Positions 17,637 to 56,500 of a stretch of DNA of 64,000 nt are shown one piece after another. Within the stretch, counting starts at the first letter, position 1; every line of letters starts with the position of its first letter. The stretch lies in sequence record NC_054926.1; one strand, 5' to 3'. The notes beneath the pieces were generated by a model. That model worked only from the letters and a program-made list of their open reading frames with translations. It did not search any database and was not told where the DNA came from. Origin of the DNA: Escherichia phage vB_EcoM_OE5505. The position numbers and the translations under genes were made by a program.

Positions 17637-18262
17637 TACAATAGCTCAAAGAATTCTTTGAGTCCTCTTATTACATGAGCGTGAGTTTTTCCACACTCTG
17701 GACATTTAATTGGAACAGCCAAATAAACAGTAGGCTTTAAAAGCATATCTTTTATAGCTACAATATCTGACTCTGTGATGATAGAATATAAATCTTCTAG
17801 TTCCTTTTCATTTAAGTCTTCAACTGGAATGCTTTCCCCGTTAGCATGAATCGTTTCTATACATGATACTATCATGTGGGCTATATTTTTATCATCAAAA
17901 ATTTTAGGGTATCGGAATTTAATTTTAATGTCACCCAGTGTATACCAAAGGTCTTCTGGTGCATCTATTTGTGTATGTAATAGATTTATATGGGTTGGTA
18001 TTTCAGTTCCGCAGGTGCACTTCCAGGAGTTTTCGTGATTAACTTCTCCAAGAGAATGCGCCCATAAATGAATCAACAATAGTTCTGATTCTTGGCGATT
18101 TAAATCTTTTGCATTTGTGCAGTCTTTGATTAGCTTTTTAACAATTACTTCTACAGAACCATTATTTTTGGCAGTAATAAGTTCTAGATATTCTTTAAGA
18201 GTAAATGCGCGACAGTTGATTATTTTAGAACCAACTCTCACATCAAATTTGTATTCATACAT
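17636..18262 (-). CDS. 26: Baseplate hub protein gp26
   Basis: 208-aa ORF, T4 gp26 length; overlaps the gene 25 start. Confidence 0.85.
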
Positions 18263-18283: not shown

Positions 18284-18295
18284 TATTTATAAATA
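18284..18295. promoter_or_regulatory. Overlapping divergent late promoters for genes 26 (-) and 51 (+)
   Basis: TATTTATAAATA: TATAAATA on the plus strand (18288-18295) and on the minus strand (18284-18291), between the divergent ATGs. Confidence 0.5.
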
Positions 18296-24552: not shown

Positions 24553-24556
24553 CAAT

Positions 24557-24585
24557 GGGGACCGAAAGGTCCCCATATTTTATTT
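24557..24585. terminator. Bidirectional terminator between gene 54 (+) and the minus-strand early cluster
   Basis: GGGGACC-GAAA-GGUCCCC hairpin followed by ATATTTTATTT. Confidence 0.65.
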
Positions 24586-24870
24586 ACGGAATGAAATAAA
24601 AGCAGCAACTGAAGCAACAGAGGTTTCTTCAATATAAACCTCAATTTTTACCGGAGCTTCTGACTCAAATTTACCTGTTACTACACCTTGGAAAATACTT
24701 TCAGTCTGTTCTGGCTTTGAAAAATTTTCAGAAGGAAAAATTCCGAACTTTTTATCTGTTCCAAAAATTTTGATAAATTCATCATAAACTGCTTCATTAA
24801 AAGCGTTATCAGCAGGAATAACGCCTTCAACTACAAGTTCTTGACCTAAAAAGCGTAAAGAAGATTTCAT
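24580..24870 (-). CDS. Hypothetical protein (position of the T4 alt.-x ORFs)
   Basis: 96-aa ORF with ATG start and GAGG Shine-Dalgarno; preceded by an early-promoter-like element. Confidence 0.5.
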   Translation of the reverse strand: MKSSLRFLGQELVVEGVIPADNAFNEAVYDEFIKIFGTDKKFGIFPSENFSKPEQTESIFQGVVTGKFESEAPVKIEVYIEETSVASVAAFISFRK

Positions 24871-24931
24871 TTTGTGTTCCTCATGTTATGTCAGTAAGAC
24901 TACTATAACACAACACGAGGGACTTGTAAAC
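24871..24931 (-). promoter_or_regulatory. Early-type promoter plus conserved leader, copy A
   Basis: Minus strand reads GTTTAC-(18 nt)-TATAGT, then the leader AGTCTTACTGACATAACATGAGGA before the ATG at 24870. A 38-nt block (24878-24915) is identical to 40697-40734. Confidence 0.4.
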
Positions 24932-26982
24932 TACATTTTGAACTTTTTAGACATTCCGTTGATGTTAACCAAAGAAGCTAAGATTTGAGAAACTTCGCTT
25001 TCCTCTTCTTTTGATTCTTCTACAAGGAATTGATTAAATCCAGCCATTGGACGAACTTCACCAGTTTCCATTAGATGGTCGCCATCATATACTGATTCTT
25101 CTAATTGTTCAGAAGGAGGAACGATTGTACCTTCGATTAGATACTTGTTATAAGCAGTTTCTTTCATAAAGTAAGTACTTACTTTATTAATCTTCAGTAA
25201 AATTCCACGTGGTAGAATAATTTCAGCTTCTGACGGAAATCCTGATAAATGACCCGGAACGATAACTTTGATTCGCTCAGCTCCTTTAATTACCATACCC
25301 ACGCTAGTTTCAGCATCTTCATTAGCATATGTAGAATGACTACCCATATGCATCAAATCTTCTGCATCAACGGAACCTTCTCCTTCACCAGAAAATACTG
25401 CGCCGGAATCATCTAGAGCCATATAGTTTTTACCATGCTCACCGAAGATATTTGGTTTAAGCGATGTGGATACGAAGTTCTTGAAATAGAACATTTTATT
25501 TTCAATGTTATGACGCAAAGTTTTAAAGGTAACTTCTTGTCCACGGTAAAGTGTAGTTCCTGGAGGAAGAACTGAACCTTTAGCGAATGCAGAATCAAGC
25601 GTCTCAATATGTTTAATAGCTCGTTCCATATATTCTTCACGGGTAGAATCTGGTTTACCCAAAAGGAACGAGTTCATTTCAACATATGAATCTGCACAAT
25701 AATCTTCAATTACATCAGATTCAGCTTGAGTTAATCCTTTTGGAGTTACTTCAGTGCTTGCGTATTCATATGCCTGAGCAGCAGATTCATTAATCAATTT
25801 ATAAATGCCATTCATGACAAATTGAATAATAGCTGTCTTTTCATCTGGCGTAGCTTTAGAACCTTTAACCAAATCATTGATAATTTTCTTAATAACATCA
25901 AAGCTATTAGAAATATTAATATCAGCAAGATCGCTTAAAATTTTATCAGTCTTATAATCAAAGAATTCTTTATTCTTTAAATATTCTTGAGAACCTTGAT
26001 ATGTTATATCGCTCTGTAACTTGATAGATGGATCACGTAAACGTGCATGGGCTAATGCAATATGATTTCGGAAGCTTTCGAGTTCATAATCACTAGATTT
26101 AAAACGAGAAGCGCTTCTCATACCGCCTATAGCTCCTTTGCTGAAGTTTGAACCAATTTGAATAACGCCAGAGTTCATTGGTCCTTCTGCTTTATACACC
26201 GGAACTTTAGATTCAAACTCTTGATATTTCTTAGCAGCGAAGCTATCACCCTGAAGTGAAGCATCAACAGTAGAATATTGAGCTTGTGCTGCTAATCGAC
26301 GACTAATTTTAGTTTTCTGAATAACAGCTTGGTCCGTGCGCTTATCATTTTCTAAAGCAATAGAAGCAGCAACAGCTTTAGGAACAGCATTACCTGTTTT
26401 AACATCTACATAAACATCACCAACCTTTGATTCAACTTTTGTGAATAACTCAGTTGAAATAGGAGGTACACCTGGAATGTCTTCTAAATTGGCATTTTTA
26501 CGATAAACCATAATATATGCGTACTTTTTATCATAATCCCAGATTTCCTTTAAAAGAACATATCGACCTGCTCCTTTAGTACGTACTAAACGGTCAGCAA
26601 TAACTTGCATTTGACGAGCTGCGCCATTTGTTTTACTCTTTAGTACACGGAATAAGCACGCGTCAATTTTATACTGCTTCATTGTTTGAAGAGCAGTATC
26701 AAAAACGGCATTAATGACACCAATTGGATTTCCACCCAAGTTTTTAAGCTTAACTAATGATAGTTTCTCATTAACACCTATCATTACGATATGCATCATT
26801 TTATCGCCTGGCTTAACGTTTTTATTCGTATCACCACCAGAGGTGTATGTACAAAATCTAAATCCAGGAAGCACGCTTTCTTCGCCGGCTTGAATAGCAA
26901 AAATTTGTGGTATTTTATGCTTAGGATTTAAGTTAACAACCGGCGCCGAAGCGCCGTCAAATAATTCTGTAATAAGTTCCAT
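24931..26982 (-). CDS. Alt-family ADP-ribosyltransferase paralogue (second copy, 683 aa)
   Basis: Begins MELITELFD like Alt and has the same architecture; R/STS/ExE-like motifs are retained (LYRGQ, FVSTSL, SEAEIILPRG); the central region diverges from the upstream copy; its own AAGGA Shine-Dalgarno lies inside the upstream gene's 3' end. Confidence 0.8.
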   Translation of the reverse strand: MELITELFDGASAPVVNLNPKHKIPQIFAIQAGEESVLPGFRFCTYTSGGDTNKNVKPGDKMMHIVMIGVNEKLSLVKLKNLGGNPIGVINAVFDTALQTMKQYKIDACLFRVLKSKTNGAARQMQVIADRLVRTKGAGRYVLLKEIWDYDKKYAYIMVYRKNANLEDIPGVPPISTELFTKVESKVGDVYVDVKTGNAVPKAVAASIALENDKRTDQAVIQKTKISRRLAAQAQYSTVDASLQGDSFAAKKYQEFESKVPVYKAEGPMNSGVIQIGSNFSKGAIGGMRSASRFKSSDYELESFRNHIALAHARLRDPSIKLQSDITYQGSQEYLKNKEFFDYKTDKILSDLADINISNSFDVIKKIINDLVKGSKATPDEKTAIIQFVMNGIYKLINESAAQAYEYASTEVTPKGLTQAESDVIEDYCADSYVEMNSFLLGKPDSTREEYMERAIKHIETLDSAFAKGSVLPPGTTLYRGQEVTFKTLRHNIENKMFYFKNFVSTSLKPNIFGEHGKNYMALDDSGAVFSGEGEGSVDAEDLMHMGSHSTYANEDAETSVGMVIKGAERIKVIVPGHLSGFPSEAEIILPRGILLKINKVSTYFMKETAYNKYLIEGTIVPPSEQLEESVYDGDHLMETGEVRPMAGFNQFLVEESKEEESEVSQILASLVNINGMSKKFKM

Positions 26983-26985
26983 GAT

Positions 26986-29043
26986 TTATCCTTGAACGAA
27001 CTTGTAAGGCATGTTTGCAATATCTATACAAGACGCAATAATTCCAAGAGATGATTCTACTTTCTGTTTAACATTTGATGAAACAAATGATGCAAAGTCA
27101 ACTCTGTCTTCTACTTCAATATCACCTGTCATTGTAACTACTTCGCCGGTTTCCATTAGACGGTCACCGTCATAAATTACCGATTCGGTGAGTTCTTCTG
27201 TGGTCATAACTTCAGCTTGAATAAGCTTGTTGTTAGTTTTAACTGTTCCATCATTGTAAGATGCATCGGTTATTTTATTAACTTTGACCATTAATCCACG
27301 TGGCAAAATGACTTCCATTTCATTTGAAGGTGCTAAACTTCCACCTGGTAAAACAACATTGACTTTATCAGCCCCAGTAATAACCCATCCAATTCCAACT
27401 AAATTATCGCTAGAATTTACTAGTCCTTCATCAGTTTTATCAATAGAAACACTTAAACGCTTTTCGTCTGGTAAAACACCCACAGATGAATCAGTCATCC
27501 AGGTACCAAAAATATTTGGATATAATGATGTTGACACAAAATTTCTAAAATAAAAAACTCGATTTTTTACCAGTGCTTCATATATTGAAGGTAACATTCG
27601 TTGTGAACGATACAAAGTAATACCTTTTGGTAATCGTTCACCATTTTTAAAGGCTGAATCTAAATTATCAATAGCTTTTTCTATGTCAGATGCTGTCAAA
27701 ATACTTGTACGCTCATCTGGATTATATAATCCCAAAAGAGCATTATTTATGTCTACATATCCTGAACCTACGTATTCACGAATTCCGCGTTTTTGTGCTG
27801 GTGTGTATTTAGATGAATCTTTATTTTCGACTATAGGATGTAATGACCATCCAGCGGTAAGAGCATATCCACGCAATTCTCTTCGAATAATCTTTGTTTT
27901 TATTGCATTCCAAGAATTTTGTACTAACTCATTCGCAGCATCTTGATTTAAATGCGAATGCTTGTTAATGTTTCTTTCTAACCAAGCACCTTTATATTTT
28001 TCTAAAGTATCATCAACTATAGAAGCAATAGTTTCTAAAGTTTTTATTGAAGTAATAGATTCTTTTCGTAATCTTTCTAAAGCTTTATTTTTTATTTCTG
28101 CATTAACATCAGATTCTTTATCTTCAGGAATTATAGAAGCTTCTCTGAATGCCATTCCAGCTGTAACACTACTAAGAGCATTCTCTAATGCAAATCCTGA
28201 AGTAGAAATAACAGTTAATTCATTAGCGTCAGAAATTAAAGGAGCGTCAGCAGGTTTATTTAATTCTGCTGCTGAAGCCTCAAATTTTTGAAACATCGGC
28301 GTTTCAAATCTAGAAGATTCCAATGATTGACTTTGCGCAATTGCTCTACGGGAAATTTTAACTTTAACGATTACAGCTTGGTCAGAACGTTTATCATTTT
28401 CTTGCGCAATAGATGCTGCAATTGCCTCATTTTTAGTTACTTGAGCTCCAGTATCTTTATTGATATAAACATCACCGACCTTCGATTCAACTTTAGTAAA
28501 GAGCTCAGTACTAATTTCCGGAACTCCCGGAATGTCTTCTAGTGATACATTTTTGCGATGTATAAGAATATATGCATACTTTTTATCGTAATCCCAGAGT
28601 TCCTTAAGAAGGACGTATCTGCCACCTGAACGACTGCGGATAAGTCTATCAGCAATAAGTTGAATTTGACGAGCTTGACCAGCAGTTTTAGACTTAAGAA
28701 TACGGAGCATGCAGGCATCAATTTTATACTGACGCATCGTTTGCATTGCAACTGTAAAAACTGAATTGATATAATTAATTGGGCTTGGACCAAGACCTTT
28801 TAATTTAGCAATTGAACCTTTAGCAGTTAATGTAAAAGGAACAATATGCATCATTTTATCGCCCATCTTTAAATCGCGATTAGTATCACCTCCAGATGTA
28901 TAGGTACATAAACGAAAGCCTGGTTGTTCAATTGCATCATCAACATGAACTGAAAAAATTTGCGGTATTTTCTTCTTTGGATTTAAGTTTGTAATCGGAA
29001 GAGTAGTATCTTCGTCAAATAATTCTGTAATAAGTTCCATCAT
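26986..29043 (-). CDS. alt: Alt ADP-ribosyltransferase (685 aa)
   Basis: Sequence recognised as T4 Alt (about 682 aa in T4): MMELITELFDEDTTLPITNL...; R/STS/E motifs (LYRSQ, FVSTSL, EVILPRG). Confidence 0.9.
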   Translation of the reverse strand: MMELITELFDEDTTLPITNLNPKKKIPQIFSVHVDDAIEQPGFRLCTYTSGGDTNRDLKMGDKMMHIVPFTLTAKGSIAKLKGLGPSPINYINSVFTVAMQTMRQYKIDACMLRILKSKTAGQARQIQLIADRLIRSRSGGRYVLLKELWDYDKKYAYILIHRKNVSLEDIPGVPEISTELFTKVESKVGDVYINKDTGAQVTKNEAIAASIAQENDKRSDQAVIVKVKISRRAIAQSQSLESSRFETPMFQKFEASAAELNKPADAPLISDANELTVISTSGFALENALSSVTAGMAFREASIIPEDKESDVNAEIKNKALERLRKESITSIKTLETIASIVDDTLEKYKGAWLERNINKHSHLNQDAANELVQNSWNAIKTKIIRRELRGYALTAGWSLHPIVENKDSSKYTPAQKRGIREYVGSGYVDINNALLGLYNPDERTSILTASDIEKAIDNLDSAFKNGERLPKGITLYRSQRMLPSIYEALVKNRVFYFRNFVSTSLYPNIFGTWMTDSSVGVLPDEKRLSVSIDKTDEGLVNSSDNLVGIGWVITGADKVNVVLPGGSLAPSNEMEVILPRGLMVKVNKITDASYNDGTVKTNNKLIQAEVMTTEELTESVIYDGDRLMETGEVVTMTGDIEVEDRVDFASFVSSNVKQKVESSLGIIASCIDIANMPYKFVQG

Positions 29044-29063: not shown

Positions 29064-29071
29064 TATTTATA
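29064..29071 (-). promoter_or_regulatory. Late promoter core (TATAAATA on the minus strand) upstream of alt
   Basis: Plus strand TATTTATA is TATAAATA on the minus strand, about 20 nt upstream of the alt ATG. Alt is a head-packaged protein in T4, so late expression is expected. Confidence 0.5.
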
Positions 29072-33387: not shown

Positions 33388-33455
33388 TTTTATTCTCCGA
33401 GATGTTTAATTGTGGTACAGGTATATAATATCATGTCCTGTACCAAAGTAAACAA

Positions 33456-33788
33456 TTATTTTACTACTTTCCAATGCTTCATGTCAAGTTTACCAACTTT
33501 TTTCATCTTCTCAATTAAGCGTTCGGCACGTTGGCGAGCTGTAACATAATGCCATTCGCCTAATTCATTTTGTTCAATTTTTCCAACGATTACTGTATTC
33601 AATTCATAAATCCAACCAGTAAAGAAATTATGAACTTGAATTGTAAAGGTGAAATCTGTTCCCATACCTTCTGTTGTTTCTACTTCAATAATATCACCTT
33701 CAACTGCCATTAAGAACCACATAGTTTCATCATATTTACCATTGAAGCATTTAGTTTTAACTGCAGCGTTCAGATTAATCGTTTTCAT
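33456..33788 (-). CDS. Hypothetical protein (110 aa)
   Basis: ATG start with AGGAGAATAAA Shine-Dalgarno. Confidence 0.5.
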   Translation of the reverse strand: MKTINLNAAVKTKCFNGKYDETMWFLMAVEGDIIEVETTEGMGTDFTFTIQVHNFFTGWIYELNTVIVGKIEQNELGEWHYVTARQRAERLIEKMKKVGKLDMKHWKVVK

Positions 33789-33898
33789 TTTATTCTCCTT
33801 TGTTTGTGTAAGATAATACTATCACAAAGGAACTATACTGTAAACAACTTTATGCAATCTTTGGAAAATAAAAAAGGACTCCCGAAGGAGTCCTCAAC

Positions 33899-37366: not shown

Positions 37367-37428
37367 TTCAATTTCCTCATTTGTTTTGGTAGAGCTATAA
37401 TATCACAACTCTACCGTAAAGTAAACTA

Positions 37429-39845: not shown

Positions 39846-40195
39846 TTAGAAAGGTCCTGGATGTCTTCTGCGAACTTGTTGAAGGAGTTGTTGATTTGTT
39901 TTTCAACCAATCCTGGCTTATGAGCCACCACATCCGCCTTCTTTGCATCTTTGCGCAGTTTTTCATTTTCACGCTCAATAGCAGCAATTGCCTCACGATT
40001 TTTATTATTCATCGCATCAATATAATTATACTGAATTCGCAAATTATCTAATGCTAAAGCGTTTTCATTGGCCGTTTTTGTAATTTCAGTAACCGATGTT
40101 TCTAATCTTTCTACCTTATTTTTTAAAATAATAGATGTTCCGCCAAATGCTATTACAAGTAATAGCAATCCAGCTGTAAAATTACTTACATGCAT
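39842..40195 (-). CDS. Inner-membrane coiled-coil protein, i-spanin-like (Rz equivalent)
   Basis: 117 aa; N-terminal transmembrane helix (FTAGLLLLVIAFGGTSIIL) followed by a charged coiled-coil domain; adjacent to the lipoprotein gene. Confidence 0.65.
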   Translation of the reverse strand: MHVSNFTAGLLLLVIAFGGTSIILKNKVERLETSVTEITKTANENALALDNLRIQYNYIDAMNNKNREAIAAIERENEKLRKDAKKADVVAHKPGLVEKQINNSFNKFAEDIQDLSK

Positions 40196-40692
40196 AAAGT
40201 TTTAATAACCTCTACAATATCGTCTTGAGAAAGACCGTTAATTAAAATATGATGTTCAGCTGGAGATTTAGAAATTTTAAAGCATGCCTCAACATCTTCT
40301 GCCATATCTGATGCACTACGATTTGGATTACTAATTCCAAGACGATGTTTTCCAGTCAAAGGATTAACGATGATATAGCATTTACAACTATTGATATGAA
40401 CATTAGGTTGAGTCTGATTAATGAACACTTCACAATCATACTTAGCGAGTTGATTTTCTAAAAAGACTTTCATCTCCTCAACCGCATCAGGAAGCATATC
40501 ACGGGCTTGCTCAAGACGACGATTTCGATATTCTTTAATGGTCGTTTTCCGCTTGACTTGCTTAGCTAAATCTTTCTTAAGATCAGTGATATATCCAACT
40601 CGACGATTTCCTTTGAATACAGAAATCCCATCTGTAGTATCACCGTATGCTTCAACGACCATTTCAGTAGTAATAAGCTGCAAATCCATCAT
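40186..40692 (-). CDS. alc: Alc, inhibitor of host transcription
   Basis: 168-aa ORF; sequence and position (between the pseT cluster and rnlA) match T4 Alc as remembered. Confidence 0.8.
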   Translation of the reverse strand: MMDLQLITTEMVVEAYGDTTDGISVFKGNRRVGYITDLKKDLAKQVKRKTTIKEYRNRRLEQARDMLPDAVEEMKVFLENQLAKYDCEVFINQTQPNVHINSCKCYIIVNPLTGKHRLGISNPNRSASDMAEDVEACFKISKSPAEHHILINGLSQDDIVEVIKTLCM

Positions 40693-40750
40693 AAAGTCCT
40701 CATGTTATGTCAGTAAGACTACTATAACACAACATAAGGAACGTGTAAAC
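40693..40750 (-). promoter_or_regulatory. Early-type promoter plus conserved leader, copy B (upstream of alc)
   Basis: Minus strand reads GTTTAC-(18 nt)-TATAGT and the same leader as copy A; 38-nt identity with 24878-24915. Confidence 0.4.
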
Positions 40751-40753
40751 AGC

Positions 40754-42341
<1,588 letters not shown>

Positions 42342-48774: not shown

Positions 48775-48912
48775 TTTATTCTCCTTAGCAAGCTTTAATC
48801 AAAAGATATAAACAGACCAACATAACTGCTGCCATAATATAAGGTGCGAACATTTTCTTTTCTCCATTAGTTTTGATAGGGTAATAGTATCACACTACTA
48901 CCCTTCTGTAAA

Positions 48913-49278
48913 CTACTTTTTGAAAGTTTTTCGCAAAAGTTCAATGATTTCATCTACATTGTTTTCGTCAACAATGCAGTGAATTTTTGTTACGCCAGAA
49001 ACTTTGTCTTTGACTTCATCTTCTTCAGAAGTCGGTTCTTTATACTCACGAAAACAATGAAATTCGTCTTCACAAACGTTAAAGTAAAAATGCTTTCCAT
49101 TTGCGCATTCAATGTGTTTTATTACTCTAAATCCATCAACAAAGAAAGCTTCTTTAACTTCAAACCATCCGCCATTTTCTTGAATAATTTTAACTATTGC
49201 TGAATTAGAACGTGGGCGATAATTAATAAATGTATCAATAAGTCTTGGAACAAGTTCATACTTTTTACCGATATACAT
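48913..49278 (-). CDS. Hypothetical protein (121 aa)
   Basis: ATG start; contains several Cys/His (CANGKH...CEDEFHC). Confidence 0.5.
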   Translation of the reverse strand: MYIGKKYELVPRLIDTFINYRPRSNSAIVKIIQENGGWFEVKEAFFVDGFRVIKHIECANGKHFYFNVCEDEFHCFREYKEPTSEEDEVKDKVSGVTKIHCIVDENNVDEIIELLRKTFKK

Positions 49279-53554: not shown

Positions 53555-56500
53555 ATGGCCGAGATTAAAAGAAAGTTCAGAGCAGAAGATGGTCTGGACG
53601 CAGGTGGCGATAAAATAATCAACGTAGCTTTAGCTGATCGTACCGTAGGAACTGACGGTGTTAACGTTGATTACTTAATTCAAGAAAACACAGTTCAGCA
53701 ATATGATCCAACTCGTGGATATTTAAAAGATTTTGTAATCATTTATAATAATCGTTTTTGGGCAGCAACGGATAATATTCCAAAACCTGCTGGAAATTTT
53801 AATAGAATTCGTTGGAAAGCATTACGTACTGATGCCGTATATACAACCGTATCATCTGGACCATATCAATTAAAATCCGGAGAAGCAATTTCAGTAGATA
53901 CATCAGTTGGCAATGACATTGAGTTTACTTTACCACCTTCTCCGCTTGATGGAGAAACCGTAATAATTCAAGATATCGGTGGAAAACCTGGCATAAATCA
54001 GGTTAAAATAAATTCTTCAAATCAGAGTATTGTCAATTTTAGAGGTGAACAGGTACGTTCAGTTTTAATGACTCATCCAAAGTCACAGATGATATTCATT
54101 TTTAATAATCGTTTGTGGCAAATGTATGTTGCTGATTATAGCAGAGAAGCTGCGATTGTTACTCCATCGACTGCGTATCAAGCACAATCTAATGATTTTA
54201 TCGTACGTAGATTTACTTCTGCTGCACCAATTAATGTTAAACTTCCGAGATTTGCTAATCATGGCGATATTATTAATTTCGTTGATTTAGATAAACTGAA
54301 TCCACTTTATCATACAATTGTTACTACATACGATGAAACGACTTCAGTACAAGAAGTTGGAACTCATTCCATTGAAGGCCGTACATCGATTGACGGTTTC
54401 TTGATGTTTGACTATAATGAGAAATTGTGGAGATTGTTTGACGGGGATAGTAAAGCACGTTTACGCATTATAACAACTAATTCAAATATTCGTCCAAATG
54501 AAGAAGTCATGGTATTTGGCGCGAATAATGGAACAACCCAAACAATTGAACTTCAGCTTCCGACTGATATTTCTGTTGGTGATAATGTTAAAATTTCCAT
54601 GAATTACATGAGAAAAGGACAAACAGTTAAAATCAAAGCTGCTGGTGAAGATAAAATTGCTTCTTCAGTTCAATTGCTGCAATTCCCAAAACGTTCAGAA
54701 TATCCGCCTGAAGCTGAATGGGTAACAGTTCAAGAATTAGTTTTTAATGGTGAAACTAATTATGTACCAGTTTTGCAACTTGCTTATATAGAAGATTCTG
54801 ATGGAAAATACTGGGTTGTACAGCAAAACGTTCCAACAGTTGAAAGAGTCGATTCTTTAAATAATTCTACTAGAGCAAGATTAGGCGTAATTGCTTTAGC
54901 TACACAAGCTCAAGCAAATGCTGATTTAGAAAATTCTCCACAAAAAGAATTAGCAATTACTCCAGAAACGTTAGCTAATCGTACTGCTACTGAAACTCGC
55001 AGAGGTATTGCAAGAATAGCAACTACTGCTCAAGTGAATCAGAACACCACATTCTCTTTTGCTGATGACCTTATCATTACTCCTAAAAAGCTGAATGAAA
55101 GAACTGCTACAGAAACTCGCAGAGGTGTTGCTGAAATTGCTACGCAGCAAGAAACTAATACAGGAACCGATGATACTACAATCATCACTCCTAAAAAGCT
55201 TCAAGCTCGACAAGGTTCTGAATCATTATCTGGTATTGTAACTTTTGTATCTACCGCAGGAGCTACTCCAGCTTCTAGTCGTGAATTAAATGGTACGAAT
55301 GTTTATAATAAAAACACTAATAATTTAGTTGTTTCACCTAAAGCTTTGGATCAGTATAAAGCTACTCCAACGCAACAAGGCGCAGTAATTTTAGCAGTTG
55401 AAAGTGAAGTAATTGCTGGACAAAGCCAAGAAGGATGGGCAAATGCGGTTGTAACGCCAGAAACGTTACATAAAAAGACATCAACTGATGGAAGAATTGG
55501 TTTAATTGAAATTGCTACGCAAAGTGAAGTTAATACAGGAACTGACTATACTCGTGCAGTCACTCCTAAAACTTTAAATGACCGTAGAGCAACTGAAAGT
55601 TTAAGTGGTATAGCTGAAATTGCTACGCAAGTTGAATTCGACGCAGGCGTCGACGATACTCGTATCTCTACACCATTAAAAATTAAAACCAGATTTAATA
55701 GTACTGATCGTACTTCTGTTGTTGCTCTATCTGGATTAGTTGAATCAGGAACTCTCTGGGACCATTATACCCTTAATATTCTTGAAGCAAATGAGACACA
55801 GCGTGGTACACTTCGTGTAGCTACACAAGTTGAAGCTGCTGCAGGAACATTAGATAATGTTTTAATAACTCCTAAAAAGCTTTTAGGTACTAAATCTACC
55901 GAATCGCAAGAAGGTGTTATTAAAGTTGCAACTCAGTCTGAAACTGTGACTGGAACGTCAGCAAATACTGCTGTATCTCCAAAAAATTTAAAATGGATTG
56001 TGCAGAGTGAACCTACATGGGCAGCTACTACTGCGATAAGAGGTTTTGTTAAAACCTCATCTGGTTCAATTACGTTCGTTGGTAATGATACAGCTGGTTC
56101 TACGCAGGACTTAGAACTATATGAGAAAAATAACTATGCAGTATCACCATATGAATTAAACCGCGTATTAGCAAATTATTTGCCGTTAAAAGCAAAAGCT
56201 GTAGATAGTAATTTATTAGATGGTTTAGATTCACTCCAGTTCATTCGTAGGGATATTGCGCAGACGGTTAATGGTTCACTAACCTTAACACAACAAACGA
56301 ATCTGAGTGCCCCTCTTGTATCATCTAGTACTGCTACGTTTGGTGGATCAGTTTCGGCAAATAGTACATTAACTATTTCTAATACTGGAACAGCAACTCG
56401 TCTGATTTTTGAGAAAGGACCTCAAACTGGGACGAACCCAGCTCAAACGATGACAGTCAGAGTGTGGGGAAATCAATTCAGCGGTGAATCGGACACAACA

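Follow-up and report, generated by a model that had tools for sequence, protein, structure and literature searches.

Repeated early-promoter hairpin cassettes ahead of alc and alt.-3 in a Tequatrovirus: a candidate early-only translational gate and signs of ectopic gene conversion

Why should two early genes that lie 15.8 kilobases (kb) apart in a phage genome be preceded by the same 38 nucleotides (nt), letter for letter? The question is raised by a stretch of 64,000 nt from Escherichia phage vB_EcoM_OE5505 (NC_054926.1), the whole of which is called the window here. In it the 38-mer TCCTCATGTTATGTCAGTAAGACTACTATAACACAACA occurs exactly twice, at 24878-24915 and at 40697-40734, both times on the minus strand and directly ahead of a gene. 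Copy 1 serves a homologue of T4 alt.-3, a frame of 96 amino acids (24580-24870, minus), and copy 2 serves alc, the inhibitor of host transcription (40186-40692, minus). A sequence-only reading had placed the copies correctly with respect to genes and spacing and had seen in each a T4-early-type promoter followed by an identical 5' leader and a GAGGA Shine-Dalgarno (SD) sequence; it went on to propose that the leaders impose a shared post-transcriptional control and that the repeats invite deletion or duplication by homologous recombination. The repeat, the promoters and the SD sequences stand. The control and the recombination, as set out below, appear to be of a different kind, in that the identical block coincides with a hairpin into which the promoter is built and which is predicted to hide the SD sequence only in RNA that arrives from upstream.

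A promoter built into a hairpin

The repeat pair is real and lies far beyond chance. No further copy was found in the window with up to three mismatches allowed, and none of 100 dinucleotide shuffles yielded a match. Similarity between the copies extends to 54 nt at 93% identity (50/54; 24878-24931 against 40697-40750, family D8 of the repeat finder). Counted from the -35 box to the ATG, the whole cassettes occupy 24868-24931 and 40687-40750 (both minus). The first takes up the full gap between alt.-3 and the stop codon of an alt paralog of 683 amino acids, the second of two (24931-26982, minus); the second cassette starts 3 nt past the stop codon of rnlA (40754-41914, minus; the stop ends at 40754), the upstream gene that reads into it. 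The window matches Escherichia phage a51 at 99.8% identity and several hundred Tequatrovirus genomes at 95-99%, and on this comparison it belongs to that genus. T4 itself carries both copies, with 38/38 matches upstream of alc and 37/38 upstream of alt.-3. A sensitive blastn search with the 60-nt module found 1080 places in 583 records, and two places in essentially every Tequatrovirus listed; by sequence, therefore, the cassette pair is a conserved feature of the genus, type phage included, shared by about 500 relatives. The identity is thus conserved in related phages, a point on which the sequence-only reading had made its case depend. A scan of IMG/VR with TTACTNACATAACATGAGGA returned five phage contigs and only the same two contexts. 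Escherichia phage vB_EcoM-G28 (NC_054916.1) has three places matching the 60-nt module, not two.

Read along the minus strand, each copy runs from GTTTAC through 18 nt to TATAGT, has a TG one base ahead of the -10 hexamer, and continues with GAGGA and ATG; in the promoter scan the two agree with the consensus at 10 of 12 promoter positions plus the TG. The -35 hexamer of copy 1 lies at 24926-24931, where its G (24931) is also the last base of the TAG stop of the alt paralog, and the extended -10 element (TGT, then TATAGT) at 24902-24910; the corresponding elements of copy 2 lie at 40745-40750 and 40721-40729 (all minus). We infer transcription starts 7 nt downstream of the -10 box, at A 24895 and A 40714. 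Some relatives have TATAAT as the -10 hexamer. The arrangement is that of the T4 early promoter type, with -35, TGn and -10 elements (Hinton 2010, PMC2988021). Published time-resolved transcriptome and proteome data for T4 place alt.-3 and alc among the early genes in both RNA and protein, with alt, immediately upstream of alt.-3, late and alt.-1/alt.-2 middle. Given that alt.-3 is early and lies some 60 nt downstream of a late gene, it needs an early promoter of its own. Judged by sequence, both copies are T4-early-type sigma-70 promoters, and that part of the original proposal is sound. In global alignments unrelated early cassettes are 0.6-0.75 identical to one another; the alc and alt.-3 pair reaches 0.84 over 64 nt.

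When the sequence is folded as it would occur in read-through RNA, both copies form a hairpin of 18 base pairs (bp), in which a 14-bp stem is followed by a bulge of 2 nt, an upper stem of 4 bp and a GUCU loop. Hairpin 1 (24879-24920, minus; -23.0 kcal/mol, z score -4.96) and hairpin 2, of the same geometry (40698-40739, minus; -21.3 kcal/mol, z score -4.55), were each matched in stability by 0 of 200 shuffles of the 60-nt segment. In hairpin 1 the 14-bp stem joins 24907-24920 to 24879-24892, the bulge is AU and the loop lies at 24897-24900. The 5' arm is the promoter spacer, CCCUCGUGUUGUGUU, which holds an anti-SD CCUC; at the top of the stem the bulge falls within the -10 hexamer; the predicted start lies on the 3' side of the upper stem; and the 3' arm, UACUGACAUAACAUGAGG, ends in the SD sequence. 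That sequence, GAGGA, lies at 24878-24882 for alt.-3, where it pairs with the CCUC of the spacer, and at 40697-40701 for alc (both minus), at a distance of 8 nt from the ATG of alt.-3 (24870) and of 4 or 7 nt from that of alc (40692 or 40689). Within the 5' arm the 38-nt identity begins five pairs in; it ends one base beyond the stem, on the last base of the SD sequence. Four differences separate the copies within the 54-nt core, and the two that fall in the stem keep the pairing (C-G to U.G and G.U to A-U).

What this means for translation depends on where the RNA begins. With the predicted start, the 5' arm is missing from own-promoter RNA, and RNA initiated upstream has both arms. The predicted cost of opening the SD sequence of alt.-3 is 11.2 kcal/mol in read-through RNA (context -150 to +35) against 1.7 in own-promoter RNA, and that of alc is 9.9 against 1.4. 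These are the two highest costs among the 53 SD-bearing open reading frame (ORF) starts in the window (11.1 and 10.2 kcal/mol in the scan of all ORF starts, with a median of 2.2 and a 90th percentile of 4.9). At both genes, then, the SD sequence is predicted to be base-paired in transcripts from upstream promoters. Such transcripts are to be expected, because the terminator scan found no terminator-like site between the upstream genes and the cassettes. A late-promoter motif, TATAAATA, found by motif scan at 29064-29071 (minus) upstream of the first alt paralog, is the likely source of late read-through RNA into cassette 1, and the alt.-3 transcription unit ends only at a two-way terminator called at 24555-24576, which closes it against gene 54. 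This terminator is a 9-bp G+C-rich hairpin with T-runs on both sides, set between the converging alt.-3 and gene 54. Translational coupling, in which a ribosome ending its work on the upstream gene would unwind the hairpin, is disfavoured: the upstream stop codons lie 10 to 15 nt ahead of the 14-bp stem and, given the known ribosome footprint, a terminating ribosome probably falls short of the stem and does not melt it. Elsewhere in the window, overlapping late motifs of the form TATAAATA (18284-18291, minus; 18288-18295, plus) lie between divergent ORF starts at 18262 (minus) and 18313 (plus), and the two SD sequences there are predicted to be unusually costly to open, at 9.4 and 8.2 kcal/mol.

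The reading that we prefer, with a confidence little better than even, is that of a composite cassette of the promoter-early stem-loop (PeSL) type, in which an early promoter sits within an SD-sequestering hairpin and whose copies are homogenised by ectopic gene conversion. A strong sigma-70 early promoter (GTTTAC, 18 nt, TGn-TATAGT) would be built into the 18-bp hairpin such that the spacer with its anti-SD CCUC serves as the 5' arm, the -10 box and the start lie at the top, and the leader ending in GAGG serves as the 3' arm. RNA from the cassette's own promoter would begin inside the hairpin, without the 5' arm, and its free SD sequence would allow alc and alt.-3 to be translated immediately after infection. 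RNA derived from upstream would carry both arms, fold and keep the SD sequence hidden. For alt.-3 this longer RNA would come from late transcripts through the alt genes and for alc from early or middle transcripts through rnlA; neither would yield Alt.-3 or Alc. The exchange between copies would run over a tract that has the motifs common to both, GTTTAC and ATGAGGA, as its limits. The shared post-transcriptional control once ascribed to identical leaders would accordingly shift its target: because the 5' arm is untranscribed in own-promoter RNA, any such control would act on read-through transcripts rather than on the short leader.

The two sites across genera and the probable exchange between them

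The rnlA-alc junctions of ten further genera were compared. The layout seen in Tequatrovirus, namely GTTTAC, 5' arm, a loop with the -10 box and a 3' arm that closes with the SD sequence, recurs at alc in Gelderlandvirus, Karamvirus, Jiaodavirus, Dhakavirus (two species), Kanagawavirus and Winklervirus, with arm sequences that differ; Tequatrovirus included, it is found in seven genera. Predicted opening costs at alc in the other six are 5.7-13.8 kcal/mol in read-through RNA against 0.6-3.0 in own-promoter RNA. The SD and anti-SD sequences change together: CUCC accompanies GGAG in Gelderlandvirus, Karamvirus and Kanagawavirus, CCUC accompanies GAGG in Tequatrovirus, Jiaodavirus and Winklervirus, and CUCCUC accompanies GAGGAG in Dhakavirus. 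Inner pairs show exchanges of A-U for G-C, for example between the Gelderlandvirus-like loci L008 and L014. The SD-sequestering form at alc is thus, as far as these sequences go, widespread if not universal, and it is probably ancestral. Gaprivervirus has a different arrangement at alc. In three Gaprivervirus-like contigs (L009, L010 and L013; 1501-2242) the match to alc extends over ~740 nt instead of ~500, and phage P479 (MW269952.1) has two coding sequences annotated as 'inhibitor of host transcription', joined from two pieces, which suggests an insertion within alc in this lineage.

In a plain MAFFT alignment across genera the arms stood 1-3 columns out of register, and a common structure could not be scored on it. 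A covariance model (R1) was built from five non-Tequatrovirus genomes and one metagenomic contig. With no Tequatrovirus input, it recovers both Tequatrovirus copies in every genome searched, at 24.7 bits for cassette 1 and 21.9 bits for cassette 2 of the window. In the alignment fitted to this model, with palindrome-derived reverse-strand hits removed before pairs were counted, 88.6% of cells are in standard pairs, against 74.0% (maximum 77.6%) in 500 shuffles. Support for the structure rests on this paired fraction, on the folding statistics of the individual sequences and on the covariation of SD and anti-SD.

The same model finds a third cassette in the window, at 33786-33845 (minus; 20.6 bits), of the same architecture and different sequence, upstream of a homologue of 30.8. 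There a 9-bp stem (UUCCUUUGU with ACAAAGGAG) sequesters the SD sequence GGAG, and the predicted opening cost is 9.2 kcal/mol in read-through RNA against 0.2 in own-promoter RNA. Eight early-type promoters were found on the minus strand of the window, and six have a clear hairpin across the -10 box. Those other than the two copies lie at 48913 (z score -3.6), 37426 (-4.1), 33453 (-3.3) and 33845 (-2.2). At the first three (48854-48913, 37367-37426 and 33394-33453, minus) the promoter reads GTTTAC, a spacer of 16 or 17 nt and TAnnAT with TG, and the hairpins are perfect, 9-12 bp long and mutually unrelated in their stems, and end before the SD sequence. Among these promoters the SD sequence is covered only in the two copies and the 30.8 cassette, and sequestration would on these predictions be a special case among hairpins that span the -10 box.

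At the alt/alt.-3 junction of Gaprivervirus, Mosigvirus, Marfavirus, Kanagawavirus and Kagamiyamavirus there is a promoter with only a small hairpin internal to the spacer. Past the SD sequence the Tequatrovirus cassette keeps a spacer of the alt.-3 type, AACACAAAATG (compare GAGGAAAACAAAATG in Gaprivervirus), and the whole resembles a cassette of the alc type that has been set at the alt.-3 site. We infer that the alt.-3 copy in Tequatrovirus was most likely derived from the alc copy. A related cassette, TATAGTAGTCCTACTGAAACATGAGGAACACAAAATG, precedes ndd.1 in the Mosigvirus phages SQ17 (L053, 1140-1243) and phiC120 (L054, 958-1061), so that the cassette can serve other genes as well; this module shares GAGGAACACAAAATG and has the same SD-to-ATG spacer as Tequatrovirus alt.-3, and its hairpin spans the -10 box, not the SD sequence.

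Evidence of exchange comes from variants within the genus. Both sites were compared in T4, seven other Tequatrovirus genomes and IMG/VR contigs. SHBML-50-1 has the loop variant GACU at alc, and RB3 has it at alt.-3; L012 has the variant CCCTCATG at alc, and UAB_60 has it at alt.-3; this window and JB75 share the linked triple change TTCCTTATG at alc, and L018 has it at alt.-3; and PP01 carries the double change TATAATAAT at both sites. In total, eight substitutions were seen at alc and nine at alt.-3, and six of these are the same change at both sites (hypergeometric P = 1e-7 for shared substitutions, 4e-5 if transitions only are considered). Substitutions in the stem mostly keep the pairing (C-G to U.G, G.U to A-U, U.G to U-A), and CTTACTGACATAACATGAGGA, the 3' arm with the leader, is almost invariant at both sites in the sampled Tequatrovirus genomes. 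As read from these sequences, the shared polymorphisms indicate ectopic gene conversion between the sites, and it is to this exchange that we attribute the identity of the cassettes. In Mosigvirus the alc and alt.-3 cassettes, both of the spacer-hairpin type, are 0.82 identical to each other against 0.62-0.69 to their orthologues in other genera, which hints that conversion there ran the opposite way, a figure within reach of noise given the 0.6-0.75 found among unrelated early cassettes.

The earlier view of the repeats as recombination substrates is therefore borne out in the form of gene conversion, with identical variant haplotypes at both sites, and fails for deletion. Genes 30 and 31, which lie within the 15.8-kb interval, are essential by established T4 genetics; deletion between the copies, which would remove them, is thus not expected.

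A reading that goes further, and to which we give slightly less than an even chance, is that the cassettes form the early-only counterpart of a late-only gate. Alc and Alt.-3 would be made solely from own-promoter RNA and not from the plentiful RNA that reads through in later periods; the gate at alc would have been kept by compensatory evolution in at least seven genera; and it would have been copied onto alt.-3 in Tequatrovirus and kept identical there by recurrent ectopic conversion.

Two further repeats in the window deserve mention. The alt (ADP-ribosyltransferase) paralogs stand in tandem as two full-length genes, at 24931-26982 and about 26986-29040 (minus), with 72-78% DNA identity and nearly identical 5' ends (repeat families D1, D2, D4 and D20). 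Both are kept in RB3, RB18, PP01, UAB_60 and SHBML-50-1; the second copy is truncated in FL44 and slur03, and in T4 the downstream paralog has shrunk to the alt.-1/alt.-2 remnants. At 54956-55881 (plus), diverged internal direct repeats of ~30-70 nt (families D3, D5 and D10) lie in an ORF of 1289 amino acids that starts at 53555, presumably the proximal long-tail-fibre gene.

Other readings of the stem-loop

The stem-loop may act on transcription rather than on translation. As an attenuator, terminator or RNA-end element for transcription from upstream, it would insulate the downstream gene from incoming polymerase, and its overlap with the SD sequence would be incidental. One PeSL stem-loop of phage RB49 lowered the expression of lacZ downstream of it to roughly the extent that rrnB T1 does (Arbiol et al. 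2010, PMC2839356), the four other early promoters of the window with hairpins across the -10 box include three that are clearly significant and end before the SD sequence, and an untranslated downstream cistron could provoke Rho-dependent polarity. However, the stems of RB49 are G/C-rich, unlike these, and the likeness to Rho-independent terminators goes as far as a stable stem-loop directly after a stop codon: the stems here are AU- and G.U-rich, the tails (AACACAAAAUG and CUUUAUGAUG) contain no U-run, and neither cassette was called in the terminator scan. On these grounds an identity as intrinsic terminators was rejected. Moreover, the 3' arm at alc includes the SD sequence in seven genera and changes in step with the anti-SD, which is not required of a mere terminator. 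Taken together, an effect on transcription is an unlikely explanation of the hairpin.

Less likely still would be a plain early promoter with a short shared leader on which a common trans-acting regulator acts after transcription, its target being the own-promoter RNA. The near invariance of CTTACTGACATAACATGAGGA at both sites and the related leader ahead of ndd.1 in Mosigvirus are what such a regulator would leave behind. Yet the predicted start would leave about half of the identical block on its upstream side, outside own-promoter RNA, and other genera keep the pairing and not the leader sequence. Nor is there a RegB site: the RegB endoribonuclease cuts at GGAG within the SD sequence of early mRNAs, and GGAG is absent from the SD region of either Tequatrovirus copy (AUGAGGAA or AUGAGGAC), for which reason a RegB target was rejected. 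Rfam 15 gave no family match at the gathering score anywhere in the window.

It is quite improbable that the hairpin is a neutral by-product of recent duplication or conversion of a promoter, with no function beyond that of a working promoter. Conversion between the sites is well supported and alt.-3 in other genera does without an SD hairpin, both of which suit this explanation, but the hairpin at alc has been maintained across seven genera with compensatory changes, and stem substitutions within Tequatrovirus mostly preserve pairing. Finally, an operator bound by a dimeric protein of the phage or the host, or a cruciform, over the -10 box, by which the two promoters would be shut off jointly, scarcely seems credible even though the inverted repeat is centred on the -10 box and start site as is typical of operators and the shut-off of T4 early promoters is incompletely understood (Hinton 2010, PMC2988021), since stems at other promoters and in other genera differ in sequence while keeping complementarity, G.U pairs that exist only in RNA included, which favours a structure over a sequence-specific site.

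Several points weigh against the translational gate itself. Both the start site and the block to translation are predictions, and the hairpin is rich in A-U and G.U pairs; its folding in vivo, on RNA that is being translated upstream, is likewise a prediction. The alignment that yields the high paired fraction was itself fitted to the structure, and pairs changed on both sides (10 of 17) do not exceed those in shuffles (mean 8.5, maximum 11). Mosigvirus, Tegunavirus and Lazarusvirus keep promoter and hairpin at alc and leave the SD sequence uncovered, and at alt.-3 the strong SD hairpin is absent in five other genera, with opening costs of 1.9-7.0 kcal/mol; the gate is evidently dispensable, given that three genera at alc and five at alt.-3 do without it. 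Other early promoters of the window have hairpins across the -10 box that end short of the SD sequence, and the role of the stem-loop may consequently be more general, with inclusion of the SD sequence secondary. Likewise, if few substitutions are tolerated, this could account for part of the sharing of polymorphisms.

Should the gate nevertheless operate as predicted, it would explain how production of an immediate-early protein stops in T4-type phages after its promoter is shut off even though later transcripts cross the gene, and would do so by a simple timing device that needs no factor, the mirror image of the hairpins of lysozyme and I-TevI. The PeSL stem-loop, so far tied to termination and recombination, would gain a further role. 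The shared polymorphisms offer a clean natural example of conversion between regulatory repeats of ~54 bp that lie 13-16 kb apart in a phage genome, and bear on how promoter cassettes spread between genes. Some 500 sequenced Tequatrovirus genomes carry both cassettes, for the most part unannotated. The basic picture of T4 gene control is unchanged.

Relation to known cassettes and gated genes

Besides terminators, three known systems invite comparison. The T4 early 'uber' promoters (UP/-35/TGn/-10; PMC2988021) resemble the cassettes in the -35 hexamer GTTTAC, the TGn-extended -10 element, the good -10 hexamer and the early genes that they drive, but the promoter consensus fails to account for an identity of 38/38.

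Closer are the PeSL cassettes of T4-like phages (Arbiol et al. 2010, PMC2839356; Comeau et al. 2014, PMC4122927), which the later paper extends to the pair PST/T4 with the consensus TTTACW-N17-TAYWAT. In that form the cassettes here read TTTACA-17-TATAGT with TG upstream and agree at 11 of 12 positions of the consensus as given there, the single departure being the G at the fifth position of the -10 hexamer. As in PeSLs, a sigma-70-like early promoter is overlapped at its -10 box by a stem-loop, the SD sequence and start codon lie at the 3' end, and the unit is repeated in the genome. PeSL crossovers were mapped between the -10 box and the SD sequence (PMC2839356), where the identity block also ends, and the published T4/PST stem motif 'AGNA-loop-TCNT' resembles AGTA-GTCT-TACT here. 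PeSL copies recombine and adjoin variable gene content; here haplotypes are shared between the copies, and the alt.-3 copy adjoins the variable alt-paralog region. By sequence, both copies have every feature that marks a PeSL, and T4 itself would already contain cassettes of this type. There are differences too. The stem is long (18 bp), AU-rich, lacks a U-run and reaches into the SD sequence, unlike the G/C-rich stems of RB49; the copies are 15.8 kb apart and flank essential genes; and what is seen is gene conversion, not excision of mini-circles. The published papers treat the PeSL stem-loop as a recombination site and as a terminator or attenuator; the text of neither (PMC2839356, PMC4122927) takes up translation or the sequestering of an SD sequence.

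The kind of cassette is thus already known, and the pair is not a new system. In a search that took in a small part of the large T4 literature, no earlier account was found of a hairpin at alc or alt.-3 that holds an early promoter and sequesters the SD sequence. What appears to be new, relative to the literature searched, is that a conserved and covarying hairpin sequesters the SD sequence and has an early promoter embedded in it, together with the evidence for conversion.

In its logic, the proposed gate comes nearest to the T4 genes whose translation is controlled by a hairpin with an internal promoter, namely e (lysozyme), soc, 49, I-TevI/II/III and segB (Uzan and Miller 2010, PMC3014915). 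In e, soc, 49 and I-TevI the SD sequence is sequestered on longer transcripts, the promoter lies inside the sequence that codes for the hairpin's 5' strand, own-promoter transcripts lack that strand and are translatable, and the arrangement is kept in related phages (PMC3014915). The geometry here would fit such internal-promoter hairpins, with the -10 box at the top of the stem and the predicted start on its 3' side. The gating of that family has been shown experimentally (PMC3014915), whereas that of alc and alt.-3 is predicted. Further, the internal promoter of those genes is late (TATAAATA) and the gate delays translation until late in infection, whereas here the promoter is an early sigma-70 promoter, and the motif scan found no TATAAATA in either cassette. 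Since the defining late promoter is absent, the cassettes are not strict members of the e, soc, 49 and I-TevI family; by analogy, they would work as its members do, with the timing reversed.

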